From the NCBI GenBank assembly GCA_023245415.1, contig JAHFKJ010000002.1, forward strand, positions 12,286-76,285: 64,000 bases of DNA, in the 5' to 3' direction. Shown here one piece after another: positions 471-55,055 of this stretch (position 1 is its first letter; each line of letters begins with the position of its first letter). Position numbers and translations under genes: made by a program. The stretch comes from Candidatus Gottesmanbacteria bacterium. Lineage in GTDB: Bacteria > Patescibacteriota > Microgenomatia > UBA10105. The notes below the pieces were generated by a model, which saw nothing but the letters and a program-made list of their open reading frames with translations, was not told the origin of the DNA and searched no databases.

Positions 471-480
471 AATTATTTAC

Positions 481-510
481 ACCCTAAGGGTGGAATAGCT
501 TTACACCTGG
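481..510 (-). repeat. REP-like palindromic unit (reverse orientation): ccaggtgtaaagctattccacccttagggt
   Basis: Reverse complement of the ggtgtaaagcYaatccacccTtagggtgt consensus also found at 1242, 45854, 50288 and 53258. Core ccacccttagggtgg is a perfect palindrome. Confidence 0.7.
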
Positions 511-554
511 TCTTGTGTCGATAAACTGTTCATGTTACATTATACATTGAATCC

Positions 555-1229
555 ATGACATCAACAAGACCGATAATATTCGCTAACCATGAAATCTACC
601 ATGTATATAACCGTGGTGTAGAAAAAAGGCCAATCTTCATTACTACTCGAGACTATCAACGGATGGTAGATACTTTTCACTATTATCAGTATATTAATAC
701 ATCACTTAGATTTTCGCACTATTTACTTCTTCCTAAATTAGATAGAGTCAATTATATGCAAGATATTATTAAAAAAGCAATTAAAGGTGTAGCAATTCTG
801 GCTTATTGTCTTATGCCGAATCACTTTCATTTTATGATTAAACAATTGCAGGAAGATGGCATATCACATTTTGTCGCCAATGTTACCAATAGTTATACTA
901 AATATTTTAATACCAAAAATAAAAGAGTAGGGCCATTGGTTCAAGGTGCGTTTAAAGCAGTCCGGGTGGAATCAGATGAGCAACTTATTCATTTGAGCCG
1001 TTATATCCACCTAAATCCAGTTAGTGCGTTTCTGATCAGATTGAATAAACTAGACACTTATCGTTGGTCGTCGTTTATGGAATATATGGGGCAGAATGAT
1101 TCGAAAATTTGTGATACTACTCAAGTCAGGAATCATTTTCTCACGATCGAACGATACAAACAATTTGTTTTCGATCAGGCGGCGTATACAATGACATCGG
1201 AGAAAATTAAGTTTATAAGTTTTGATTGA
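555..1229 (+). CDS. IS200/IS605-family Y1 (HUH) transposase, REP-associated tyrosine transposase (RAYT)-like
   Basis: Contains an LMPNHFHFM HUH motif and has the size and sequence pattern of Y1_Tnp (PF01797). It is flanked by inverted copies of the palindromic REP unit at 481-510 and 1242-1270. Confidence 0.65.
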   Translation: MTSTRPIIFANHEIYHVYNRGVEKRPIFITTRDYQRMVDTFHYYQYINTSLRFSHYLLLPKLDRVNYMQDIIKKAIKGVAILAYCLMPNHFHFMIKQLQEDGISHFVANVTNSYTKYFNTKNKRVGPLVQGAFKAVRVESDEQLIHLSRYIHLNPVSAFLIRLNKLDTYRWSSFMEYMGQNDSKICDTTQVRNHFLTIERYKQFVFDQAAYTMTSEKIKFISFD

Positions 1230-1241
1230 GAGTTAAGAATG

Positions 1242-1270
1242 GGTGTAAAGCCAATCCACCCTTAGGGTGT
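1242..1270 (+). repeat. REP-like palindromic unit ggtgtaaagccaatccacccttagggtgt
   Basis: Matches the dispersed 29-nt repeat consensus and sits directly 3' of the RAYT gene. Confidence 0.7.
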
Positions 1271-5043: not shown

Positions 5044-5574
5044 ATGGCTACACTTTTACAAATTGCCCAACTTGGACATCCCGTCATCCGCCAAAAAGCC
5101 AAACAAGTAGAACGCTTTGAAGACCCAAAAATTCAGACCTTGGTTGATGATTTGATCGCAACGGTGATGGATGTCAACGGCGTGGGCATTGCAGCTCCTC
5201 AGGTTTATGAGTCACTACGGTTATTTATCATGGCCTCACATCCCAACCCGCGCTATCCCAAAGCTCCAGATATGGAACCAACAGCGATTATTAACCCCAA
5301 AATTATTTCTCATTCCCGCTCAAAAGAAAAGGACTGGGAAGGCTGTTTAAGCATTCCCGGAATCAGAGCCCTCGTTCCTCGATATAAATGGGTCAAAGTC
5401 CAATATTGTGATAGACAGGGTAAAAAAGTGATTCAGACGTATACAGATTTTTTAGCCCGCATTTTTCAGCATGAATCAGATCACCTGGATGGAATAATAT
5501 TTTTAGACAGACTCGAAAATATGCAGGAAGTGATGACTGAAAAAGAATATCTAAAAGTAGTTGCAAAATTGTAG
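5044..5574 (+). CDS. def: peptide deformylase
   Basis: Carries the GVGIAAPQV, EGCLSIPG and HESDHLDG signature motifs. Confidence 0.85.
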   Translation: MATLLQIAQLGHPVIRQKAKQVERFEDPKIQTLVDDLIATVMDVNGVGIAAPQVYESLRLFIMASHPNPRYPKAPDMEPTAIINPKIISHSRSKEKDWEGCLSIPGIRALVPRYKWVKVQYCDRQGKKVIQTYTDFLARIFQHESDHLDGIIFLDRLENMQEVMTEKEYLKVVAKL

Positions 5575-20519: not shown

Positions 20520-20690
20520 GATTAAGTATAGAGATTAGCACTTAGATCTTAGAATTTAGAGCTTATAACTTAATGATTAGTTATTAGAGCTTAGATTTTA
20601 GTACTTAGATCTTAGCACATAGAATTTAGCTTTTAGATCTTAGAACTTAGAGATTAAAATTTAGAGATTAGAGATTAGAACTGATGATGA
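20520..20690. repeat. degenerate tandem minisatellite of TTAGA(G/T)CTTAGA-type units
   Basis: tagagattagcacttagatcttagaatttagagcttat...tagatcttagaacttagagattaaaatttagagattagagattagaac. Related short motifs occur at 32096-32140 and 34235-34262. Confidence 0.6.
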
Positions 20691-20691
20691 A

Positions 20692-21330
20692 TTGAGTAAG
20701 AAGTGTACTTTCACTGCAATATTCATGAATAATAAAAACTTTCATTTTTTGGCTACCTGGGTGTCGCGGATTTTCTCGCCTCTAATAATAATTCCCGGAT
20801 ATCTTCTATATGAAATCAAAAGACTAATAATTGGTTTTCCACAGCAGCTTCTAGTATTCCTAGTTATTTTTGGGTTTGGAGTCGTACCAATTTGCATTGC
20901 GCTGATAGTACTTAAAAAAACTCATCATATTACAGACTGGAATATGACTGAAAGAAAAGAAAGACATTTGTTCAATGGAATCACTTTATTCTTTGGATTT
21001 ATTTGCCTAATTTTACTTTCTTTATTTTTTCGAAGAATATTCACTATCGAAATATTTATTATTTTAATTTGGATGACCTTATTTACAGGAACAACGTTTT
21101 TTTGGAAAATTTCTGCCCACACGATCGTTATTACCTATTTGGCTAAAATAGTCGTAGATTCAAATGCTGGAAATTTTGGCTGGATTTACGGTCTGATTCC
21201 ACTCGTAGCCTGGTCACGTGTTTATAATAAGAAACATACATGGGAACAAGTCATTGGTGGAGTAATATTTGCATTTATCACACTGCATGTAACCTATCTA
21301 ATTTTTCATTTTTCAATTATTGATATCTAA
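20692..21330 (+). CDS. integral membrane protein, hypothetical
   Basis: 212 aa with about 6 TM helices. Confidence 0.4.
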   Translation: MSKKCTFTAIFMNNKNFHFLATWVSRIFSPLIIIPGYLLYEIKRLIIGFPQQLLVFLVIFGFGVVPICIALIVLKKTHHITDWNMTERKERHLFNGITLFFGFICLILLSLFFRRIFTIEIFIILIWMTLFTGTTFFWKISAHTIVITYLAKIVVDSNAGNFGWIYGLIPLVAWSRVYNKKHTWEQVIGGVIFAFITLHVTYLIFHFSIIDI

Positions 21331-26438: not shown

Positions 26439-26522
26439 TACATGATTGGTGACAAGCGAATAGTACATATACATTTTTAAGAATTTCTTGTCACTTATCA
26501 CATGTCACGTGTGACTTTTTTT

Positions 26523-28703
26523 ATGAAACTAATTCTTGTTGAATCACCGACAAAGGCACGTACATTAGCCCGATTTTTGGGGAAAAAATATCGGATTGAG
26601 GCGACCTTTGGACATTTACGTGATTTGCCAAAAAGTGAAATGGGAGTCGATGTGGAGCACGATTTTTCGCCAAAATATATAATTTCCCGGGACAAATTGA
26701 AGCGCGTCAAGGAACTCAAAATTCTAGCCGAAAAAGCCGAAACGATTATACTAGCTACCGACCCTGATCGGGAAGGAGAGGCGATATCCTGGCACGTGAA
26801 AGAGATATTAAGTAACTTGGGAAAGAAGAAAAAAGGAAATAAAGATAAAAAGGACATACCTGAATCTAAAATTTCACCGCCAATCAATTTTCAACGAATA
26901 ACTTTTCACGAAATTACTGAAGAAGCAATTCAAGAGGCACTTTTGCATCCCGGGGAAATTAACATGCCCCTTGTTGATGCCCAACAAGCCAGACGAATTT
27001 TGGATAGACTGGTAGGTTATGAATTATCACCGCTATTATGGAAGAAATTGTCCCGGCGTTGGTTGTCAGCGGGTCGGGTGCAATCAGTCGCGGTACGACT
27101 TATTGTTGAACGGGAACGGGAGATTGACCGGTTTGTGAAACAGGAATACTGGGTGATAGAGGGTGAGTTTGAATCAAGTCATCCTGATCCGCCAACTGGC
27201 GGAGAAGGATCTAGCGTTAGCGTTAAAAAAGATAATGACGCTTCGCTAGATTTCTCTGGGGCAAAGTCAAATCGAAATGACAATTATAAAAAAGCCAAGC
27301 TTGTTTCCCTGGATAACGTAAAGTACGAGGTGAGCGAAACTCTTAAACTCTTCGATGGGTCATATACATTTAGTAAAACAACCATTGTCAATTCGCAACA
27401 AGTTGATTTCATCATCCATGATTTCAAAGAGCCATTTACTGTTTCAGCGGTGACAAAAAAGGAAATAAAACGCTATCCGGCTCCTCCCTTTACGACGTCA
27501 GCGATGCAAATTGATGCGGGACGAAAATTGGGTTATAGCACTAAACGTATCATGCAACTGGCCCAGCGTCTATACGAAGATGGTTTGATAACTTATCATC
27601 GAACCGATTCGGTTAATTTGTCGGCTAAATTTTTGGGAGCCTGCAAGAGTTATATCGAACAAGAATATGGCAAACAGTATTCTCATTACCGTACCTATAC
27701 GACCAAATCAAAAACAGCCCAGGAAGCGCATGAGGCAATTCGCCCCACCCAAATATCTCGAATTTCTTTGGATCGGGGTGATGAACGGGAAAGATTGTAT
27801 AGTTTAATTTGGAAACGGGCAGTCGCCTCGCAAGCCGCTGAAGCAGTTTTTGATTCGACCACGATAAATATCAACTCAAACAATGGTTACTTATTTGAAA
27901 CACAAGGATCTGTGATCAAATTTGATGGATATTTAAAAATAGTAGGTTATGACGAAGAAACCATCCTCATCCCGGATGTCAAAGTTGGTGATATTTTACG
28001 GCTTGATACATCTCTACCAGTGCAGAAATTTACGGCGCCACCTCCCCGTTATAGTGAAGCGGCACTCATAAAAGCGTTGGAAGAGGATGGTATCGGTCGG
28101 CCTTCAACTTATGCTCCGACTCTGACAACAATCCAGGAACGGTTATACGTGGAAAAGGAAACAAAAGAAGATGGCCGTAAGGGAAGAAATTTTGTACCGA
28201 CAGAGCTGGGATATTTGGTGATTGATTTTTTAGTCAGGCATTTTCCGGAAATTGTTAAGTTGCCGTTTACGGCAAAAATGGAAGAAGAACTGGATGAAAT
28301 AGCTGCAGGAAAAAGGCAATGGGTACCGCTAATTGCCGAGTTCTATACGCCTTTTGCTAAGCAGCTGGCGCATGTGCGGGAAACAGTGGAAACTTTAGAA
28401 GCACCGGTTGAGAAAACGGGGCTTACGTGTCCTGAGTGTAAACAAGGGGATGAAATCATCAAACAAGGTAGGTTTGGCAAATTTTTGGCCTGTTCCCGCT
28501 TTCCGGATTGTAAATATACCAAAAATTTAATTGAAAAAATCGATGTCAAATGTCCTGAGTGTAATGTGGGAGAAATGGTAGTCAGAAAATCCAAACGCGG
28601 CCGCGTTTTTTATGGCTGTGACCGATATCCCGAGTGTAAATACGCCTCTTGGATCAAACCGAAAGTAATTCCAAAACCGGCTAATCCGGAGGTGTCTATC
28701 TAA
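26523..28703 (+). CDS. topA: DNA topoisomerase I with C-terminal Zn-ribbon repeats
   Basis: Toprim start MKLILVESPTKA, a core catalytic-Tyr region, and three C-terminal CxxC...CxxC zinc ribbons. The likely start is the ATG at 26523, inside the longer ORF that begins at 26502. Confidence 0.9.
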   Translation: MKLILVESPTKARTLARFLGKKYRIEATFGHLRDLPKSEMGVDVEHDFSPKYIISRDKLKRVKELKILAEKAETIILATDPDREGEAISWHVKEILSNLGKKKKGNKDKKDIPESKISPPINFQRITFHEITEEAIQEALLHPGEINMPLVDAQQARRILDRLVGYELSPLLWKKLSRRWLSAGRVQSVAVRLIVEREREIDRFVKQEYWVIEGEFESSHPDPPTGGEGSSVSVKKDNDASLDFSGAKSNRNDNYKKAKLVSLDNVKYEVSETLKLFDGSYTFSKTTIVNSQQVDFIIHDFKEPFTVSAVTKKEIKRYPAPPFTTSAMQIDAGRKLGYSTKRIMQLAQRLYEDGLITYHRTDSVNLSAKFLGACKSYIEQEYGKQYSHYRTYTTKSKTAQEAHEAIRPTQISRISLDRGDERERLYSLIWKRAVASQAAEAVFDSTTININSNNGYLFETQGSVIKFDGYLKIVGYDEETILIPDVKVGDILRLDTSLPVQKFTAPPPRYSEAALIKALEEDGIGRPSTYAPTLTTIQERLYVEKETKEDGRKGRNFVPTELGYLVIDFLVRHFPEIVKLPFTAKMEEELDEIAAGKRQWVPLIAEFYTPFAKQLAHVRETVETLEAPVEKTGLTCPECKQGDEIIKQGRFGKFLACSRFPDCKYTKNLIEKIDVKCPECNVGEMVVRKSKRGRVFYGCDRYPECKYASWIKPKVIPKPANPEVSI

Positions 28704-28704
28704 C

Positions 28705-28725
28705 ACACCCCTGGGGTGTGCATTA
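28705..28725. terminator. hairpin cacaccc-ctg-gggtgtg after topA
   Basis: 7-bp perfect stem followed by a T-rich tract. Placed between convergent genes. Confidence 0.45.
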
Positions 28726-39630: not shown

Positions 39631-40548
39631 TTGGAGATACATATGGAAAATCAGGTAAACATCAGCAACCAAAGTACTCGGCAAATCGGCCAAAATCCGG
39701 TTAGCCGATCTATTCATACCCAGGAGAAACCAAAACTAAATTACTGGATCATTTCGACAGTTTGTTTCGCACTTTTGTTTATTTCTACACTTGCTTGGCA
39801 TATAATATACGTTTCCAAATTAGAGAAACAGAAAATTATGAATCCGACCCCTTTACAACAAAGTCAAAATCGAACTAGTTTAGTACCAACACCACTTGTT
39901 TCACCAATTGCCACGAATTCTCCCATACCTGGTAATTCACACTTTTCAAATAAAGAATTAAAGATTAGTTTTACTTACCCAAATGAGTTGGGTCCCGCAC
40001 AGGATAAACCAGCTTCAAAAGGAAAAGGTGGCTCTGCAATTGAAGGAGAAGAGTGGTGGAAAATTGATTTTGACGAAAGAGCATTCGTACCTGGTTATTA
40101 TGAAATTTCCGCAAGCACACCCAATTATGCTCCATCTTCTTGGGAAGGTTCACCTCACTGGCTCAATATCAAAATTAATACAACAGACAGTATAGAATCG
40201 GTAAAACAAAAATTGGTCTCCGCAAATTTTTTAGTATTGAAAGTCCAAAAAGTCTATAGCTCAAAAAATGTAGTTGCTTACATTGTTTGGACGCTTGATT
40301 GTTATGTAGGTTGTGCTCTCGCACGAGTATATCTTGTGCCTTTATCAAATGTTCAATATAATAATCTACTTATTTATACAATCTTAAAAAATCTAAACAC
40401 AGGTGAAGAAAGTGAAACCATAGACCACGCTAAAACTCTCGCAACTCCAGAAATTGTCAAAATAGAAAATAAGCAAGCAGATGGAATCGTTATTAAATAC
40501 CTTACGGGTCAAGATTTAATTTTCAATACGTTAATAATTGGAAATTAG
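39631..40548 (+). CDS. membrane-anchored hypothetical protein
   Basis: N-terminal TM (YWIISTVCFALLFISTLAWHIIYV). Extracellular S/T/P-rich linker followed by a globular region. Confidence 0.4.
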   Translation: MEIHMENQVNISNQSTRQIGQNPVSRSIHTQEKPKLNYWIISTVCFALLFISTLAWHIIYVSKLEKQKIMNPTPLQQSQNRTSLVPTPLVSPIATNSPIPGNSHFSNKELKISFTYPNELGPAQDKPASKGKGGSAIEGEEWWKIDFDERAFVPGYYEISASTPNYAPSSWEGSPHWLNIKINTTDSIESVKQKLVSANFLVLKVQKVYSSKNVVAYIVWTLDCYVGCALARVYLVPLSNVQYNNLLIYTILKNLNTGEESETIDHAKTLATPEIVKIENKQADGIVIKYLTGQDLIFNTLIIGN

Positions 40549-40583: not shown

Positions 40584-40633
40584 GCTGCGGGTGGGCATAA
40601 TCGGCAAGCTTAGTGTAAAGGCGCCGCGCCCAC
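40584..40633 (+). repeat. GC-rich direct repeat, copy 2
   Basis: gctgcgggtgggcataatcggcaagcttagtgtaaaggcgccgcgcccac. Confidence 0.6.
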
Positions 40634-45840: not shown

Positions 45841-45853
45841 CATATTAAGAATA

Positions 45854-45882
45854 GGTGTAAAGCTGATCCACCCTTAGGGTGT
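45854..45882 (+). repeat. REP-like unit ggtgtaaagctgatccacccttagggtgt
   Basis: Matches the repeat consensus. Confidence 0.7.
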
Positions 45883-47005: not shown

Positions 47006-50000
47006 TTACAGCCTCCCATACATAAGTGTAGTGTTTTGGTAGCTGCCGTTATTCGTCCTGAAAAATAAAAATTCCACCGTTTCCGGCCGATTCCACCCTA
47101 TCCGCGACCATTTAATCGACGGGCCGGCGTCATAGCCATTGTTATTTGAGACCAGGGCTATTGCCGTTTGGGTTCCCCATGTGGAACTTCCGCTTGGCTT
47201 TTTGATATAGCAGAAATTCTGCAAATTTTTGCAATCCGCAGTCGCCGATGTACTTTTTGGGTGCCCGTGCCCCAAAATATATAAATCTCCGCCGGAATTT
47301 ATGGCAAGCCCCGGATCGTGCGTATACGCGTTTACCGCCTGGTCCACCCAAACGCCCGTTGCATTAGTCACATAATGAATATGCCCGTAATCGCCGGTCG
47401 CATCAAAATTTTCCATATACACCAGATGCTTTTTGTTTCCGCTGTCAATCACCATACTCGGACCCTGGTCAATATTAATCCCAGAATTAGTACTCGTCCA
47501 TGCTGGCGCTGTGCTTACCGACTCAATCGTCCCCCAGCTCCCCGTCACTGGCTTGCTTCTGACCAATATCTTAGTCGGACTGGTATTCTCTCCTACCCAG
47601 GCAACTGTTACTCCGTCGTCAACCGGCGAAACCACCAACTGCGGATGATTACTGCTCCCGGCAGTATCAATTTGCGTCGGCCCGTCAGTCAGTGTCAACG
47701 TATTACTTGCCGCGACATAAGTATATGCCCGATAACTTATGTGGTTATTGGCTGACCAATACGCCACATGCAGTTTTCCGCTGCCATCTGCCATTCCCGA
47801 TACTCCGCCCGACCCTAAATAATTTCCCGAAACCGTTGGATTGCCGCTGCCCAATGTAATCGCGCTTTTAAAAGAATTCGTGGTGGTATCAAATGGATAA
47901 TCTTTTAAATTTCCGCCCTGCGTATTGGTCAAGACATGAATTATGGCTGTCCCATCATTCACGGCATCGACTTGTATCACCGCGTTCGCATCACTAACCT
48001 GTGCAGTCCCGTTAAAATCAGCCGTAGCCGAGGGCAGCCCGGAAACCGTGGTCCAATAAGCTTTCAGTGTGTTCGAGCTTTCGGCCAGACCGGCAAATGT
48101 ATACACCCGATCGGAATTGGTTCGGACAATTTGGCGGGGTGTCACGTCGGCATAGCCGCTATTTATAGGAAACGCCGCCGGACTTGTTAATGTCGGTGTG
48201 CTGGTTGGAAAAATTTGAGTAAAATTATCTATCACATTGGCCAAATCAAAACTGTTGACTTTATTGTCATAGTTTTGATCAATCGCCGCTGAATTTGCTA
48301 ACCAATTCTCAAGCGTTAATTTAATATCCAAAGCATCAACTTTCCCGTCATTATTCACATCACCGTTTTTAAAAGCAAGCGTAGCCGTAGGAGTTAAAGA
48401 TGGAGAGTTTACCGGTATCGGACTGGGACTTACGGCAACTGTCCCAGAATGTTTAAACACCATGATATCCCCGCCGTTTCCCTCAACTACTATCAAATCA
48501 TTCGCGACATAAGTATATCTGGGTAAAAAACCAGCGCTGTAGGCCGTTCCCGAATTGGCATTAAACAGTGCCGGGTCATTTTTCCATCCCGGCGGATCGG
48601 AAACTCCAAAATAACCCCACCAGGCCGGGCCGCTGAAAAACCTGCCGCCGTCAGTCATGTAGTGCAAATTGGTACAGCTGTCTGTCCAGTGGGTAATCGT
48701 GTTTTTGCAACTGATCGTTTGTATGGCTCGGATAAACACCGGTTGCCGGAAAGTCGAAATTCCCGTAGCAAAAGTCAAGCCCGCAGATTTATTATTCCGA
48801 CTCGCGCTATCGATCATTTCACCCACTGCAGCAGCCCAATGTGAATTAAAAACCGTGTTTCCGGCCACCGTTATCGGTACTTCCTCGTCAACAATATCAT
48901 TGTATGCATCACCTTCAGATTTATGCACCAAACTTTTAATAAATCTTAAGTTGCCCGTCGGTAAATTTGGTACGGTCGTATTATCCAAAACCATCTCTCC
49001 TAAATGGCCGTCCCACCGCCAGTCGATTGGGTTTGCCTGTCCATTTCTAAAAATCATATAAGCTACTTCATCGCCATTGGGCCACACTTTTACCGCCGGT
49101 TGTGTTCCCATTACCCCGTACCCTTCAGTTTGGGTACTGATTAAATCTTCTGTACTGCCATATCCGACTGCGGGAATAAATTTTTCCGTCCCGGTACTCA
49201 AATCCAGAGCAAATAAGTTCTTATATTGCGGATTGTCTCTGAGCCAATTTTGGTTCACGGTTTGATCACTTGGAAAACTGGTAGTTGTCCCGGGATGGAT
49301 CAACATGTAATCGGGGGGTAGCTGCATTCTTAACAACACCACTTCATGATTATCGGCAATTACCGGCCAGCCATTCTCAAATTGTGTACCTACCGGCGTT
49401 CCATTTATCGTCGTAGCTACTGACCTAAACGGATCACCCGGACTATTAACTGTCGGCTTCACGCGCCATTTAACTCCTCCGGTACTACTGTTTACTGCAT
49501 GCACAAACAAATCATCGGTGGCAAAAATAACTACATCAAATTTAGCCGAATAACTGGGAAGTGTTGCCACCGTTGCATTAGCCGCATATGCGTTCGCCCA
49601 TGCTGATGTCATCGTCGTCGTGTTGACTTTGTACAAATGCCCATCATCAGTAACAGCAAAGACAAATTGTCCCACCAGTAAAATTGCCTTACTAATGGGG
49701 TTTTGGGCATTAAATGTCACAAACGTCCCGTCGAGTACATTTATTTTATACACCAGTCCATTTGCTCCACCCGCATAAACAAAACCCGCATCATATGCCG
49801 GTGCGCCGTTAAAAGCCGTCGCCGTAGTATTCCAGACTGGTACACCTGTAGATTTTGTCAAAGCATACAACCCGTGATTGCCGGCCGGAACAAAAATATA
49901 GTTTCCCCCGGTCACCGTCCGGGCTTCCTTGGGCGCGTTGTACACATGATTTCCAGTGCCGCCGTTGCCATCTGCACCGTTCCACGACCACAAAAATTTC

Positions 50001-50161
50001 CAATTTATAGAACTTCCCAAACCCGGATCATCTGCAGTATATCCGCTCCGCTGGGCATTACCCGCGTCTTGGCTCCAGTCAGAGGCAAAAACTTGTGCTG
50101 TTTGAAAAAGATATATGACCAACGTGATAAATAAAATAGATTTACACCTGTATTTATTCAT
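47006..50161 (-). CDS. large secreted protein with PQQ-like beta-propeller repeats and a type-I dockerin module
   Basis: Signal peptide. The N-terminal WSQDAGNAQRSGY...LYAL..G..W repeats resemble PQQ/WD-like propeller blades. GDVNNDGKVDALDIKLTLENWL...DNKVNSFDLANVIDNF is a duplicated dockerin Ca-binding segment. Confidence 0.5.
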   Translation of the reverse strand: MNKYRCKSILFITLVIYLFQTAQVFASDWSQDAGNAQRSGYTADDPGLGSSINWKFLWSWNGADGNGGTGNHVYNAPKEARTVTGGNYIFVPAGNHGLYALTKSTGVPVWNTTATAFNGAPAYDAGFVYAGGANGLVYKINVLDGTFVTFNAQNPISKAILLVGQFVFAVTDDGHLYKVNTTTMTSAWANAYAANATVATLPSYSAKFDVVIFATDDLFVHAVNSSTGGVKWRVKPTVNSPGDPFRSVATTINGTPVGTQFENGWPVIADNHEVVLLRMQLPPDYMLIHPGTTTSFPSDQTVNQNWLRDNPQYKNLFALDLSTGTEKFIPAVGYGSTEDLISTQTEGYGVMGTQPAVKVWPNGDEVAYMIFRNGQANPIDWRWDGHLGEMVLDNTTVPNLPTGNLRFIKSLVHKSEGDAYNDIVDEEVPITVAGNTVFNSHWAAAVGEMIDSASRNNKSAGLTFATGISTFRQPVFIRAIQTISCKNTITHWTDSCTNLHYMTDGGRFFSGPAWWGYFGVSDPPGWKNDPALFNANSGTAYSAGFLPRYTYVANDLIVVEGNGGDIMVFKHSGTVAVSPSPIPVNSPSLTPTATLAFKNGDVNNDGKVDALDIKLTLENWLANSAAIDQNYDNKVNSFDLANVIDNFTQIFPTSTPTLTSPAAFPINSGYADVTPRQIVRTNSDRVYTFAGLAESSNTLKAYWTTVSGLPSATADFNGTAQVSDANAVIQVDAVNDGTAIIHVLTNTQGGNLKDYPFDTTTNSFKSAITLGSGNPTVSGNYLGSGGVSGMADGSGKLHVAYWSANNHISYRAYTYVAASNTLTLTDGPTQIDTAGSSNHPQLVVSPVDDGVTVAWVGENTSPTKILVRSKPVTGSWGTIESVSTAPAWTSTNSGINIDQGPSMVIDSGNKKHLVYMENFDATGDYGHIHYVTNATGVWVDQAVNAYTHDPGLAINSGGDLYILGHGHPKSTSATADCKNLQNFCYIKKPSGSSTWGTQTAIALVSNNNGYDAGPSIKWSRIGWNRPETVEFLFFRTNNGSYQNTTLMYGRL

Positions 50162-50287
50162 AATGTGACATAAGTAAATGTATAATAGTTTAAATTAGCT
50201 TGCAATAGAGGATAAATCGCAGCTTATAAAAAATTAAGGATCGACACTTATCACCTCACCGCATGTCCTTAGCTAGGTATTAGTATA

Positions 50288-50316
50288 GGTGTAAAGCTAA
50301 TCCACCCTAAGGGTGT
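50288..50316 (+). repeat. REP-like unit ggtgtaaagctaatccaccctaagggtgt
   Basis: Matches the repeat consensus. Confidence 0.7.
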
Positions 50317-50338: not shown

Positions 50339-51859
50339 CTAAAAAAACGAGTTTATATATTCTTCTATCCATGTATACCCGCTGGGAGCTAAATTGTTTC
50401 TATCAGCCGGATTATTTTTATCCAGTCCCACATTCGTCTCCCAAGCATCTGGCATCCCATCATGATCAGTGTCAAGCGGAGCTGTTCCCGTGGCATATGC
50501 CGGAAAACCATTAAATACATCGCGCCTATCGGTTGGCTCGTCGCACGTTATAATGCAATCAATAATAATACCTGTCCCATTTCTGACACTATCTACCACA
50601 TAATTATCCACCATGTCTCTTTTGGGAGCCAGCGCTCCCGCCTTCGACAGCACTAAATTGTAAGCCGTATCCGCAGTCTCGGCAATTACTTGTCCGGATG
50701 AAAATGCCGGGCTAAACACCTGGTAACGCATAGTATTACTGACTCCATCCATCACCCGATCAGTCCCAATAAACGTCCCATCGCGTTCATAAAACTTATT
50801 ACCCGACACATAAATTTTGCTTCCAGCCCCCAGTCCATCAGAAATTTCTATGGCGTTCCTTGTCACGGATGACGAATTTACTCCTCTTTTTATCGTATTT
50901 CCAATCGCGTTGGCCAGTGACGGCAACCCCGACAAATTCGAATCCGTAAACTTAATTGGATAAATTCCGCCGCCAAAATTATAAGTCACGTTGTTAATTA
51001 TCTCTGTACTCGTATCTCCAAATATCCCTGGCGACCGGTCAGCGTCGTGTGCAATCAGATTATGATGCACCGAAACATTCTTAGAGTGATCTCCAATCAA
51101 TAGTCCCATACTATGAGGGTCAAACACTCCTGGCGGCTTACCTTCATCCACATGAATGCTGTCATACAAACCTTCTGAAGTAATATTCCAGGAAAAAGTC
51201 ACATCGTGCACTTTACTGTTCCAGGTCGAGATATTTTCATCCAGTCCCCAGGAAATCGAGTTATGATCTACTACCACGTTATACACCTCCACCGACCCCT
51301 CTCCCGATACAGTCACCCCGTCCCGCGAAGTACTTGGACTGCCAGTCGGATCATCCCCTGGCCGCAATCTCAGCCCCCTGACAATTACATCATGGGTGGC
51401 AATCCGTAAATAAGATTTTCGAATTACGACTCCATCTCCCGGTGCAGTTTGTCCGGCAATAGTTATATACGGGTTATTTATTTTAAGCTCACTTGCCGCG
51501 TCAATATATCCCCCCGTCCTAAATACTACTAGCCGCGGTCCCACAGCTGCGATCGCCGCCCGCAAACTCCCCGCTCCCGTATCGTTTAAATTTGTCACTT
51601 CAATTACTTGGCCTCCCCTTCCACCAACCGTATCCGTCCCAAAGCCCGCCGCTCCCGGAAATGCTTTAATTGGCACACTCGGTAATTTTGGCGAGAAAAT
51701 ATCCAGTGTATTTATTTTACCATCATGATTCACATCTATCGCTGGCACATTTTCTCCATATCTAAGTATCGCAGCTTTAATATCATAATTATTTACGGCC
51801 AGTACCGGGCCTACCCACAAAAATCCGCTTGTTACCAAAAAAATTATTTTTCTTCTCAT
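50339..51859 (-). CDS. secreted right-handed beta-helix (pectate-lyase-like) protein with dockerin-like N-terminal segment and C-terminal DTDHDGMPDAWE Ca-binding motif
   Basis: Signal peptide. DVNHDGKINTLD, beta-helix repeats (NxxG/hydrophobic stacks), and a C-terminal thrombospondin-3-like DxDxDG motif. Confidence 0.45.
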   Translation of the reverse strand: MRRKIIFLVTSGFLWVGPVLAVNNYDIKAAILRYGENVPAIDVNHDGKINTLDIFSPKLPSVPIKAFPGAAGFGTDTVGGRGGQVIEVTNLNDTGAGSLRAAIAAVGPRLVVFRTGGYIDAASELKINNPYITIAGQTAPGDGVVIRKSYLRIATHDVIVRGLRLRPGDDPTGSPSTSRDGVTVSGEGSVEVYNVVVDHNSISWGLDENISTWNSKVHDVTFSWNITSEGLYDSIHVDEGKPPGVFDPHSMGLLIGDHSKNVSVHHNLIAHDADRSPGIFGDTSTEIINNVTYNFGGGIYPIKFTDSNLSGLPSLANAIGNTIKRGVNSSSVTRNAIEISDGLGAGSKIYVSGNKFYERDGTFIGTDRVMDGVSNTMRYQVFSPAFSSGQVIAETADTAYNLVLSKAGALAPKRDMVDNYVVDSVRNGTGIIIDCIITCDEPTDRRDVFNGFPAYATGTAPLDTDHDGMPDAWETNVGLDKNNPADRNNLAPSGYTWIEEYINSFF

Positions 51860-51985: not shown

Positions 51986-52156
51986 TTAGCCTATCAAATT
52001 TAAAGAACTACCTAAGATCTGTGTCATCCACAGTATTCCCGTTCGTTGGGTATTGCCCGCGTCTTGGCTCCAGTCAGCAGCAAACACATGCGATGTTTGA
52101 AAAAGAGATACAACGAACGTGATAAATAAAAGAGATTTCCGCAGAAATTTATTCAT
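51986..52156 (-). pseudogene. duplicated 5' fragment (promoter plus first ~45 codons) of the large dockerin protein gene
   Basis: MNKFLRKSLLFITFVVSLFQTSHVFAADWSQDAGNTQRTG parallels MNKYRCKSILFITLVIYLFQTAQVFASDWSQDAGNAQRSG. The upstream 120 nt (52141-52260) also match 50162-50280. Confidence 0.6.
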
Positions 52157-52270
52157 AATGTCACATAAGTAAATGTATAACACTTTATATAAGCCTGCAA
52201 TAGGGGATAAATGCGAGTTTATAAACGTAATAGGGAACGAAAAATGAGGGTAAAATATTTCGTGATATAA

Positions 52271-52636
52271 TTGCGGTATATGGGAATGACTGATGTGCAA
52301 CTGACCATTAAAAACCCGCAAAATCCTAAAAGTAGCTACATAGGTACATTTTTAGTTGATAGCGGAGCAACGTATACTGTGGTGCCGGAATCAGTACTCA
52401 AAAGATTGGGGATAAAGCCGGATCGTGAAGAAACATTTGTTTTAGCAGATGGCAAATCAATTAAGAGAAAAGTGGGTAGTGCGTTGTATGAATATCAAGG
52501 GATCAAGAGCGCCGCGCCTGTCCTGTTTGGGGAAAAGCATGACAGCAACCTACTTGGCGTATTTACTCTTGAAGCTCTTGGGTTGACGCTTGATCCGCTT
52601 AAACGGCAGCTCTATAAGGCACTGCTTCGGTTATAG
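52271..52636 (+). CDS. retropepsin-like (clan AA) aspartic protease
   Basis: FLVDSGATYTVVP aspartyl protease motif. About 120 aa. Confidence 0.55.
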   Translation: MRYMGMTDVQLTIKNPQNPKSSYIGTFLVDSGATYTVVPESVLKRLGIKPDREETFVLADGKSIKRKVGSALYEYQGIKSAAPVLFGEKHDSNLLGVFTLEALGLTLDPLKRQLYKALLRL

Positions 52637-53257
52637 CTCGCTTTTGTTACGTATTAGAATTGGTGTAAAGTTAAAACACAAAATAGTGAAGGTATAAATT
52701 ATGCCAAAAAGGCCACTCTATATCAATATCTTAAATATTTTTCTTATCGCTGGTTACCCATATATCTTATATTACCTTTTCTTTCCACTTATCAAATACA
52801 AAATTAGTCAAGAAATCTTTATATTTACCTTAATCTCGAGCATGATTTACTTTATATGTTACTTAGGCTTGTGGTACAGAAATCCTGGAGTTTTCCGATT
52901 TTTTTAACAACATTTATCGCAAAACAGCTGTTTTATATCGTGATCGGCAAATGGAATGTTTATGTTCTAGGTGGATTATTAAATTTGTTTATTGTAAAGA
53001 TAATTGCAAGTAACAATAAAACAGTTTCTTCACAATAATTGTAAATGCAAATACCAAGAATGCATCAGCTGTAAATAGAAACTCTTTATCATCTTCACAA
53101 TTAGTGGTTATAACGGTAGTTTTTGCCGGTTTAAGTGTGATACTAGGAGATGGACTGCTAGCATTATTTTGGTTAATCGCATTGATCACCTTTGGTTTAA
53201 CAATTACAACTTTTATTAGAGAAAAAATTGTAAGTAAAAGAAAGTAACTTGAGAATA

Positions 53258-53286
53258 GGTGTAAAGCTAATCCACCCTAAGGGTGT
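53258..53286 (+). repeat. REP-like unit ggtgtaaagctaatccaccctaagggtgt
   Basis: Matches the repeat consensus. A half-copy sits at 52662-52680. Confidence 0.7.
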
Positions 53287-53288
53287 AT

Positions 53289-55055
53289 TTACTTCACCGT
53301 CACGCTTTTGGCCAGGTTCCTGGGCATATCGGGGTCGAGGTTTTTTTCGAGAGCCAGAAAATAGGCAAGCAATTGACCCACCACAATATTGGGAATTATC
53401 GTAGCTTCCTCGGCATCCTGAACTTCTAAATACTCATCAAAAATTTCATGAGACTTGTGCGAGATGCCAATTATGTTGCCGCCTCTGGCTTTCATTTCCA
53501 TGGCTCCGGCTAAATTTGCCCCATACGTTTCATCATTTGGAACATATGCGATACACGGCGTACCTTTTTCGATCAAAGCGATCACGCCATGTTTGAGTTC
53601 ACCCGCCGCGAAGCCTTCGGCATGAATGTAGGATATTTCTTTAATTTTTAAGGCAGTTTCAAGGGCTGTTGGGTATGAAAGACCGCGGCCGATAATATAT
53701 ATATGATGCGCATTTTTAAGCTGGTGGGCAATATTTTTTATGTTATTCACATTATTAAATAATTTTTGAATTGAGGTTACTGATTGAATGAGGATTTTTT
53801 GCCCTATTTTTTTATTATCGCTCAGAGTGTATGCAAGCAACACCAACTGCGCCAGTGTTGCAGTTACTGCTTTGGTTGAAGCCACGGCTTTTTCTATTCC
53901 GGCACCTATGAGTAACTGATAGTGTGATTCTCGGTAGAGTGTTGAACCTAAGACGTTAAGCAGTGCTCCGATTTGGGCACCACTATTTTTGGCCGCTTTT
54001 ATAGCTTCGAGGGTGTCCATGGTTTCTCCTGATTGCGATAGGGCAATTACCAAACTTTTTGCGGTTAAAAAGTCTAAATGATAGGCAAATTCACTGGCTG
54101 GAGCCCAGTTGATATGTTTATTAGCAATTTTTGAAAACAAATATGTGCCTGCCAAACTTACATAAGCACTACTTCCGCAACCCACCAGGTAAGTTCCATA
54201 CGATTTTTTAATCCTATCAGCAAGTTGGTCAGTTGAAATTGAAGACTGGTTAACGAGCGTATTTATGATTTCTGGTTGCTCATGTATTTCTTTGAGCATA
54301 AAGTAAGAAAATTTACCCCGGGATGCATCAGTTTTTTTCCAGTCAAGTCTTTGAGGTTGTATTTTTTTGAATTTTCCGTTTGCTGCGTCATATATATTGA
54401 CTTCACTCATTGTCACTACTGCCATTTCATCATCTTTAAGAAAGTAAACATCGTGGGTAAGGGGGAGTAAAGCTGGGGCATCACTGGCAATAAAATTCTC
54501 CTGCTCGCCAAATCCGATGACGAGTGGTGAGCCGTTGCGGATGGCAATTAACTCTTGATTATGGGCGTTTAGGGCAATAAATGCGTTGAGCCCGGTCATT
54601 TGTTTAAAACTCATTCGTACGCTTAGGGCAAATTCGTGTGTTTTTGATAATTCTTCGATTAGGTGTGTGGCTACTTCAGTATCTGTTTCGGAAATAAACT
54701 TGTGGTTACTCTTAATCAATTCCTTTTTTAACTGCGCATAATTTTCAATGATGCCGTTATGTATGAGAGCAATTGATTGCAAACAGTCGGTGTGGGGGTG
54801 GGCATTCATTTCGGTTACGCCGCCGTGAGTGGCCCAGCGGGTGTGGCCGATAGCAATATTTCCGGGCGGCAAATCGGAAACTGAAGCAGTACCAATTTTA
54901 CCTATCCTTTTTTTCACCACTACTTTAGAATTCGTAATTGGTACAACTGCTACTCCCCACGAGTCATACCCGCGGTACTCCAGTGACTTAATGCCTGCAA
55001 ATACAATTTGGGCTGCTGTAGATTTTTTACCAATATAGCCAAAAATTCCACACAT
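53289..55055 (-). CDS. glmS: glutamine--fructose-6-phosphate aminotransferase
   Basis: N-terminal MCGIFGYIG (Ntn Cys) followed by two SIS domains. Confidence 0.9.
   Translation of the reverse strand: MCGIFGYIGKKSTAAQIVFAGIKSLEYRGYDSWGVAVVPITNSKVVVKKRIGKIGTASVSDLPPGNIAIGHTRWATHGGVTEMNAHPHTDCLQSIALIHNGIIENYAQLKKELIKSNHKFISETDTEVATHLIEELSKTHEFALSVRMSFKQMTGLNAFIALNAHNQELIAIRNGSPLVIGFGEQENFIASDAPALLPLTHDVYFLKDDEMAVVTMSEVNIYDAANGKFKKIQPQRLDWKKTDASRGKFSYFMLKEIHEQPEIINTLVNQSSISTDQLADRIKKSYGTYLVGCGSSAYVSLAGTYLFSKIANKHINWAPASEFAYHLDFLTAKSLVIALSQSGETMDTLEAIKAAKNSGAQIGALLNVLGSTLYRESHYQLLIGAGIEKAVASTKAVTATLAQLVLLAYTLSDNKKIGQKILIQSVTSIQKLFNNVNNIKNIAHQLKNAHHIYIIGRGLSYPTALETALKIKEISYIHAEGFAAGELKHGVIALIEKGTPCIAYVPNDETYGANLAGAMEMKARGGNIIGISHKSHEIFDEYLEVQDAEEATIIPNIVVGQLLAYFLALEKNLDPDMPRNLAKSVTVK

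Follow-up and report, generated by a model that had tools for sequence, protein, structure and literature searches.

A 64,000-nt stretch of contig JAHFKJ010000002.1 from a Candidatus Gottesmanbacteria bacterium, which was analysed as a whole and is called the window here, contains one copy of a gene for a class-2 Y1 HUH enzyme, placed between two inverted copies of a short repeat unit. Each unit consists of a GGTG tag, 11 nt and a short hairpin. Intact copies of the unit and a decayed one are also found alone elsewhere in the window, and the same anatomy is kept in about 20 relatives of the gene. Taken together, this is probably a locus of the REPtron/TIRtron type in a Microgenomates-like genome of the Candidate Phyla Radiation (CPR), in which the Y1 gene is placed between its own cognate units. 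Genomes of CPR bacteria are very small, and the usual view is that they contain little mobile DNA.

A Y1 HUH gene between inverted hairpin units

The gene, its promoter-like site and all units detected in the window are the following.

479–507, minus strand: upstream unit, inverted; hairpin CACCC-TAA-GGGTG at 480–492 (outer side), minus-strand tag GGTGTAAAGC at 498–507 (inner side)
500–527, plus strand: promoter-like site of the Y1 gene; TTTACA (within the unit's tag), 16 nt, TAAACT; 9 of 12 matches
555–1229, plus strand: homologue of Y1 HUH single-stranded DNA (ssDNA) endonucleases/transposases, 224 aa; based on Pfam, NCBIfam, invariant residues, an AlphaFold (AF2) model and a PDB match
1233–1270, plus strand: downstream unit; 5' extension TTAAGAATG, tag GGTGTAAAGCCAATC, hairpin CACCC-TTA-GGGTG, then T
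28691–28718, plus strand: possible divergent unit, assignment uncertain; GGTGTCTATCTAACA-CACCCC-TG-GGGGTG, found with a generic pattern
45845–45882, plus strand: solo unit in the gap from the dcd stop (45840) to the ATG of an HD-domain gene (45889)
50279–50316, plus strand: solo unit between two minus-strand genes, at the stop of 50339–51859 and the start of 47006–50161
52654–52688, plus strand: decayed unit; TTAGAATT-GGTGTAAAG-TTAAAA-CAC-AAAATA-GTG
53249–53286 (feature to 53298), plus strand: solo unit, 2 nt after the glmS stop codon

The open reading frame (ORF) at 555–1229 carries the Y1/HUH motif LMPNHFHFM, as stated in the original prediction for this locus, and matched the Pfam profile Y1_Tnp (PF01797) with 32.3 bits at a cut-off of 23 (E = 1.2e-7). 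The HUH residues are H90-F91-H92 (nt 822–830), and the predicted catalytic Tyr150 (nt 1002–1004) lies inside RYIHLNP, followed by a YRWSS motif at residues 169–173. With its tyrosine motif of the form Y---NP, the protein is a class-2 Y1 HUH enzyme, as class 1 and class 3 have Y---Q or Y----Q (PMC6006769, Table 1). H90, H92, Y150, N154 and P155 are unchanged across 31 homologues (49–57% identity), and the motifs YH..NRG, N-H-F-H, QG.FK, R-Y150-.-H-.-N-P and Y.WSS are invariant among them. Such invariance is consistent with purifying selection on an active enzyme, and would be expected if its activity has been maintained. A check against profiles of REP-associated tyrosine transposases (RAYTs; REP, repetitive extragenic palindromic) gave a mixed outcome: NCBIfam REP_Tyr_transpos (NF047646) does match the ORF, but at 46.9 bits, under its equivalog cut-off of 80. 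All 31 relatives match this profile as well, with a best E-value of 2.9e-14.

The AF2 model of the protein has a pLDDT of 88.3. Its closest structure in the PDB is 4ER8_A, which is E. coli TnpA-REP with a REP hairpin (E = 2.2e-6, target TM 0.70); TnpA of ISDra2 and IS608 rank after it (E of about 2–3e-3), and 2XO6 and 2A6O were also matched. The similarity to 4ER8_A was found by the structure-based search, and phmmer gave no match between the protein and PDB sequences. Past residue 160 the model contains short helices only, and a C-terminal helix-turn-helix (HTH)-like domain (Bac_DnaA_C, HTH_23, HTH_28) was not matched in Pfam at E ≤ 1. There is one copy of the gene in the window, not accompanied by tnpB, and its neighbours are a PIF1-type helicase gene and an orphan ORF.

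The repeat was searched for as the 29-mer GGTGTAAAGCyawTCCACCCTwAGGGTGT, which has five matches in the window at ≤3 mismatches, against 0.00 expected from 100 shuffles. Two of these lie in inverted orientation directly outside the ORF, at 479–507 on the minus strand and 1242–1270 on the plus strand, and the other three recur on the plus strand at 45854–45882, 50288–50316 and 53258–53286, all between long ORFs; on each of these points the original prediction was borne out. The repeat continues about 9 nt 5' of GGTGT, where the downstream copy and every solo copy have TTAAGAATA, which makes the unit about 38 nt long (1233–1270, 45845–45882, 50279–50316 and 53249–53286). Solo copies share the unit and not their flanks, and units are situated between long ORFs or at their very ends; the downstream unit, for instance, ends 6 nt ahead of the ATG of the helicase gene (1277).

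Some details had to be corrected. The core had been described as a perfect 15-nt palindrome, ccacccttagggtgg, which is not literally present; the sequence found is CCACCCTTAGGGTGT, a 5-bp stem (CACCC-N3-GGGTG) with a 3-nt loop. Folding the unit as ssDNA, as had been suggested, predicts a hairpin of only −3.7 to −4.2 kcal/mol. What was called a half-copy at 52662 keeps the 5' extension and the tag along with a degenerate stem, and looks like a decayed full unit. No Rfam family matched any unit. A reading of the unit as a transcription terminator was rejected: the stem has 5 bp, a T-run is lacking, and a terminator scan returned one marginal match, on the minus strand.

The generic pattern GGTG-N9-13-CACC-N3-7-GGTG has 8 matches in the window, against 0.08 expected. 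One of these is the possible divergent unit at 28691, the tag of which coincides with the final codons and the stop codon of topA (26502–28703). Apart from the flanking pair, the window holds three intact solo units, a decayed one and this possible divergent one. All five are on the plus strand, and GC skew is positive in 15 of its 16 bins. With n = 5, the strand bias of these non-flanking units fits, weakly, a strand-biased mechanism acting on ssDNA. Other assemblies extend the window by 8.8 kb on its right and by 2.5 kb on its left, and no further units were found there. The site at 45845–45882 is also filled in assembly L088 and that at 53249–53286 in strain variant L089. A CACC at 53295–53298, 8 nt 3' of the end of the latter unit, may form a "double foot", and another of the 8 pattern matches is this possible second foot; such variants were also seen in L001, L007 and L005.

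Left of the upstream unit, a minus-strand frame (1–478; 2450–3010 in L081) is open from position 476, right after a TAA that overlaps the unit's end. It contains no ATG, GTG or TTG before a Met at 221, which gene callers use as the start of a 101-aa product. When translated from 476 onwards (186 aa), it has no Pfam match and no homologue; the cassette might have disrupted this frame and taken away its start.

The tag and hairpin in related loci

A homologue search returned 7975 of 8000 candidates at E ≤ 1e-3, with a nearest non-identical protein of 57% identity. Named matches are annotated as "transposase" of Levybacteria, Daviesbacteria, Gottesmanbacteria or the Patescibacteria group, and public CPR metagenomes contain thousands of homologues. 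Loci from GTDB representatives gave a similar picture, and among the 80 listed there is one Y1 locus per Microgenomates metagenome-assembled genome (MAG). The title "uncultured Gammaproteobacteria" on some records is taken here as a loose label given to co-assembly bins. The next-nearest relatives, at 25–30% identity, are from Bacteroidota; they carry NHFH and YIHQNP.

In about 20 relatives from Microgenomates MAGs (41–57% identity), the tag and hairpin are found inverted on both sides of the gene. For each close locus with both flanks available (L001, L002, L004–L009, L012–L014, L085, L092 and L094), the pattern lies immediately before the gene on the minus strand and immediately after it on the plus strand. 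An equal layout with other stems was seen in L010 (CACAC/GTGTG) and in L011, L016 and L017 (AACCC/GGGTT), and in the more distant CPR homologues L018–L029, quite different palindromes flank the gene on both sides. From these layouts it follows that the stem varies in sequence by lineage, while still forming a hairpin and being alike on both sides of the gene. The asymmetric loop is inverted in the window, L006, L010, L013, L014 and L017 and direct in several others; the orientation of the tag is inverted in all loci.

The tag and the hairpin are related in sequence. In 29 of 31 units, the first 4–6 nt of the tag are a copy of the stem's 3' arm, placed 14–16 nt ahead of the stem start, and the tag co-varies with this arm (GGTG; TGTG in L010; GGGTT in L017). 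Since it repeats the 3' arm, the tag is complementary to the 5' arm too. In an alignment of 24 units, 93% of the hairpin cells are paired, and two of the five pairs have changes on both sides, i.e., they are compensatory. The original prediction had suggested looking for a 5' guide tetranucleotide. GGTG is conserved 11 nt upstream of the hairpin, and a GT[AG]G at the hairpin foot was not found. The window, L085, L005 and L009 have GGTGTAAAGCTA in common, with Y1 proteins that are 43–47% identical.

In the direction of the gene, the upstream tag reads TTGACAC(C/A) (TTGACACC), which holds a perfect −35 hexamer. At 11 of 19 loci, this tag stands 16–18 nt before a −10-like hexamer, which in these 11 relatives ends 5–13 nt (mostly 6–8) before the ATG; in L092, the −35 hexamer lies outside the tag. 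We infer from these sequences that the upstream tag doubles as the −35 box of the Y1 gene.

In L094 (9870–9945), upstream of the Y1 gene of P0005, the 5' half of the hairpin (AACCACCCTCCATG) occurs three times in tandem, followed by the TTGACACC tag.

Dispersal of units outside the window

A scan of JGI metagenomes with the window's unit retrieved five contigs whose DNA similarity to the window is the unit alone. One of these, L085, encodes a Y1 protein of 47% identity, with a unit downstream and an inverted hairpin upstream. Three others with the same accession prefix (L083, L084 and L086) contain four near-identical solo copies in unrelated contexts, which carry the 5' extension of L085 (CCAAA directly before GGTGT). 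The fifth, L087, is an unrelated contig with three near-identical units. The combination of a Y1 gene, its flanking units and solo copies with a lineage-specific 5' extension is seen in the window, and is probably seen again in L083–L086, if these contigs are from one genome. With a looser structural pattern, solo units were also detected in L005 (two sites), L013 (two) and L094 (one), where they are intergenic or at gene ends. The exact unit pattern had no matches in 185,579 GTDB representatives, nor in viral contigs.

Two of these contigs have further particulars. At 5504–6367 of L087, two direct-oriented units bracket a nucleotidyltransferase-like ORF and a second small ORF, a pair that, on our reading of the sequences, may be of the HEPN/nucleotidyltransferase (MNT-like) kind and toxin-antitoxin-like. 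In L083, the 3' arm of one unit and its flank are tandemly duplicated (TAAGGGTGTAAGAGAAA twice).

Among the relatives, the Y1 gene has no conserved neighbours except in L006/L008. A peptide deformylase gene is found 2.6–3.8 kb from it in the window, L001 and L017, in differing arrangements. At such divergence, synteny is uninformative about vertical versus horizontal descent.

Comparison with known Y1 systems

The original prediction of a RAYT architecture held in part. A class-2 Y1 enzyme, a fold like that of TnpA-REP, inverted hairpin units and solo intergenic copies are all in place, but the profile score is below the RAYT cut-off, the GT[AG]G foot and REPIN doublets are lacking, and copies are few in the sequence covered. 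By its motifs, the locus would not be a canonical REP/RAYT system, and the TIRYT/TIRtron group of subclass 2.1 fits better; this is a motif-level assignment made against Table 1 of PMC6006769, not with the hidden Markov models of its authors. Subclass 2.1 is characterized by NH[YF]H or NHVH, FQ or W[EQ], Y[IV]HLNP or YIELNP, an SS tail, and a median length of 238 aa (PMC6006769). The Y1 protein has NHFH, VQ (family consensus PLFQGxFK), YIHLNP and WSS, and a length of 224 aa.

Subclass 2.1 has been equated with the TIRYT/TIRtron elements of Di Nocera et al. 2013 (PMC6006769; PMC3733652) and is Group 1 of the RAYTs of Bertels (PMC5581495). The 16-mers flanking Group 1 genes have about 12 copies per replicon, compared with 57–140 in REP-associated groups, and the low-level dispersal in the window matches this report (PMC5581495). 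The statement that such systems are barely documented outside Proteobacteria proved mistaken: Group 1 was found in 21 bacterial classes (PMC5581495), and flanked class-2 Y1 genes have been described in Cyanobacteria, Bacteroidetes, Acidobacteria and others. CPR or Microgenomates are not mentioned in PMC6006769, and a full-text literature search returned one paper in which RAYTs and Patescibacteria both appear, in passing only.

TIRYT genes are flanked by terminal inverted repeats (TIRs), which are sometimes self-complementary and are moderately repeated (PMC3733652). The locus resembles TIRtrons in its low-copy gene, in inverted repeats that stand a fixed short distance away and can be partly self-complementary, in flanking repeats that form small or moderate dispersed families or none, in a protein of about 224–238 aa, and in the NH[YF]H, FQ, Y[IV]HLNP and Ser-Ser tail motifs. 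It differs in the tag, which begins with GGTG and not GGGG, stands 11 nt from a 4–8-bp hairpin and co-varies with its 3' arm. The tags only approximate the published TIR motif GGGGWSAS: GGTGTCAA agrees with it at 6 of 8 positions and GGTGTAAA at 5 of 8. The motif was also not found beside the distant Bacteroidota homologues. Further differences are the lack of a Pfam-detectable C-terminal domain of the DnaA_C/HTH type in the window's Y1 protein, and a host from a CPR/Microgenomates lineage, outside those surveys. Subgroup 2.1.2 is described as heterogeneous in its C-terminal domain (PMC6006769).

The E. coli REPtron (TnpA-REP, RayT/YafM, 4ER8; subclass 2.2, RAYT Group 2) is the best structural match, and shares the Y...NP motif, a gene seen in one copy and inverted flanking hairpin units that are also extragenic. 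However, identity in the structural alignment is 15%, with no phmmer match to the PDB, and the window's unit has no GT[AG]G foot, a far shorter stem, and no arrays of bacterial interspersed mosaic elements (BIMEs) or REPINs. In the sequence covered, its copy number is also lower by at least an order of magnitude; canonical REPs typically number more than 100 per genome. More generally, the Y1 protein does not fit the canonical GTAG-REP subclasses (2.2, 2.4, 2.5 and 2.7), which have DHLH/YIHYNP and similar motifs.

TnpA proteins of the IS200/IS605 family (IS608, ISDra2) share the HUH/Y1 fold, a possible strand bias, and a short hairpin with a separate short motif at a fixed distance 5' of it; at the left end of IS608, the cleavage site is 19 nt 5' of the hairpin. 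In contrast to the window's gene, which has Y...NP, encodes 224 aa, and is present as a single diverged copy with inverted ends and no tnpB, these subclass 1.1 elements have Y...Q, about 150 aa, several near-identical copies, and often tnpB. Subclass 2.6 (RAYT Group 5, Bacteroidetes), to which the next-nearest Bacteroidota relatives appear to belong, has "atypical secondary structures", and its genes are flanked by non-GTAG hairpins with a few copies elsewhere in the genome (PMC6006769). It differs in its tyrosine motif (YIH[QN]NP, not YIHLNP), its length (about 180–205 aa) and its phylum.

Proposed mechanism and alternative explanations

A mechanism can be proposed by analogy with TnpA-REP and IS608 (PMC3479197, PMC6006769 and general knowledge). 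The Y1 enzyme would bind the hairpin in ssDNA, for example in the lagging-strand template, and would read the tag, itself a repeat of the stem's 3' arm. The ssDNA might then be cut and rejoined by Tyr150 and a metal held by His90 and His92, with an occasional, low-rate seeding of solo units into intergenic DNA as a possible outcome. The two inverted flanking units would be the enzyme's resident copies. As the upstream unit carries the putative −35 box of the Y1 gene, the enzyme could also regulate its own gene by binding. Binding, cleavage, mobilisation, strand bias and autoregulation are all argued here from these analogies.

Several observations weigh against a REPtron/TIRtron-type locus. 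The hairpin alone is unremarkable, as its z-scores are just −1.5 to −1.9, and its foot reads AATC directly before CACCC, with GT[AG]G absent from the units. Copy number is low, at 5 to 7 units in about 75 kb; solo units are clustered, at 28.7 kb and at 45.8–53.3 kb, and are singletons kilobases apart, with no REPIN doublets or BIME arrays in the window. When the relatives were searched strictly for their own lineage's unit within ±10 kb, hardly any solo copies turned up, and the solo units of L005 and L013 are more like the unit types of other lineages than like the units beside their own Y1 genes. No site was found filled in one strain and empty in another: L081, L082, L088 and L089, which are other assemblies of the same population (L088 100% and L089 99.5% identical to the window), carry units at matching sites. 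Finally, subclass 2.1 was without REP-like sequences in the survey of Quentin et al. (PMC6006769), and neither biochemistry of subclass 2.1 enzymes nor a cognate REP was found in the literature searched.

The closest competitor is that the units are expression signals of a domesticated gene, with an operator/promoter upstream and a transcript-end hairpin downstream, and that the solo copies bind the same protein as a regulator or DNA-structure factor, without any transposition. The −35 box in the upstream tag at 11 of 19 loci, with its well-spaced −10-like hexamer, speaks for this, as do the scarcity of nearby solo copies in most relatives and the conservation of units over deep divergence (the shared GGTGTAAAGCTA). 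We nevertheless think it unlikely: the downstream unit has no T-run and a stem of only 5 bp, solo copies have no −10 partner in either direction upon inspection of the sequence, one of them is decayed, and they are found at 3' as well as 5' ends of genes. Mere binding, moreover, would not need the invariant catalytic tyrosine and HUH motif. In another alternative, the cassette (479–1270, 792 bp) would be an IS200-like insertion sequence (IS) that moves as a whole, of which solo units are footprints or miniature derivatives. Its gene neighbourhood differs in nearly every relative; in several of these, the two hairpin loops read one way on one strand, like the ends of IS200/IS605, and L004 has a second, partial Y1 ORF. 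Group 1 is also among the more IS-like RAYT groups (PMC5581495). Against this stand the single copy in the window, the single locus per MAG among the listed relatives, and relatives that are about 50% identical, with no near-identical copies. The tyrosine motif has the class-2 form Y...NP where IS200 transposases have Y...Q (PMC6006769, Table 1), tnpB is missing, the structure is nearer to TnpA-REP than to IS608 TnpA, and the units, as judged by the tag, are inverted throughout, unlike IS200/IS605 ends. An IS of this kind is improbable.

It is more improbable still that the units act in RNA, as ribosome-binding or leader elements or as mRNA-stabilising hairpins, unrelated to the Y1 gene. Two units do end 6 nt before an ATG (1277 and 45889), the AGGG of the 3' arm is weakly similar to a Shine-Dalgarno (SD) sequence, and the unit at 479–507 abuts the minus-strand ORF that lacks a canonical start until the Met at 221. 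However, only about 10 of 47 long ORFs have any SD-like word, two of these words being the units themselves, and the ribosome-binding or leader reading was rejected because the genome hardly uses SD sequences. Two units furthermore point at the 3' ends of convergent genes, there is no Rfam match, and it would be left unexplained why units and Y1 genes go strictly together in about 20 lineages. A REPtron/TIRtron-type locus stays the preferred reading.

Systems of this kind are known already, and weak dispersal and non-GTAG repeats have been described for TIRYT/Group 1 and for subclass 2.6. New are the CPR host group, the tag that copies and co-varies with the 3' arm, and the apparent use of the tag as a −35 box. 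The REPtron/TIRtron type, i.e., a Y1 HUH enzyme that looks domesticated and is flanked by hairpin repeats of its own, would thereby be extended to CPR bacteria, and subclass 2.1 enzymes gain a candidate DNA substrate of simple anatomy, consisting of a tag, 11 nt and a 5-bp hairpin. Where Microgenomates genes of this type are labelled "transposase", they should be left out of counts of active insertion sequences. The short units account for small intergenic repeats and may serve as strain markers.

More tentatively, Microgenomates might possess an undescribed REP-like class with a "split foot", in which a 4–6-nt tag stands 11 nt 5' of a very short hairpin, copies its 3' arm and co-varies with it, and which co-evolves with a CPR-specific clade of class-2 Y1 enzymes. 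We regard this as possible but doubtful. If true, the split-foot covariation would imply guide-like recognition, nearer to IS608 than to the GTAG-REPs, and a tag that doubles as a −35 box would couple recognition of the element to autoregulation. A near-universal, intact, single-copy gene in streamlined genomes of about 1 Mb would then point to ssDNA processing that benefits the host, rather than to a selfish element.

Other features of the window

Most long ORFs in the window are not preceded by an SD-like sequence, and in many a −10-like box (such as TATAAT or GATACAAT) ends 6–12 nt before the start codon. This suggests that mRNAs from the window may be leaderless or have very short leaders.

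The stretch at 50–53 kb contains an ORF for a retropepsin-like aspartyl protease, small membrane ORFs, and three of the units. Its GC content is higher and its GC skew reversed, and it may for these reasons be a variable region. A 189-nt duplication of 82% identity (50042–50230 and 52037–52225) spans the 5' end and upstream region of a gene for a 1051-aa PQQ-propeller/dockerin protein; the second copy heads a truncated ORF of 111 aa (51986–52321).

The 16S rRNA gene (35271–36945) is 1675 nt long, compared with the 1533 positions of the model. Within it lies a pair of 106-nt direct repeats of 99% identity (36083–36188 and 36537–36642), each with internal inverted repeats; the pair may represent inserted or intervening sequences. 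Directly after it, Rfam matched a group-II-intron D1-D4 domain (37130–37221; 37 bits, with a threshold of 35), followed by an ORF for a 154-aa LAGLIDADG endonuclease (37221–37685) and two tRNAs (38051 and 38154). Large-subunit rRNA had no match in the window at the gathering threshold.

Two ORFs further on, at 38581–39435 (284 aa) and 39631–40548 (305 aa), have no Pfam matches; each is followed by a GC-rich 50-nt repeat (39506–39555 and 40584–40633, 90% identical). A TTAGA-rich array with a 14-nt period (20528–20710) lies upstream of the ORF at 20692–21330 and overlaps its start. Related pieces of 29–38 nt are found at 34233–34261 (direct) and 32099–32136 (inverted), both beside gene starts.

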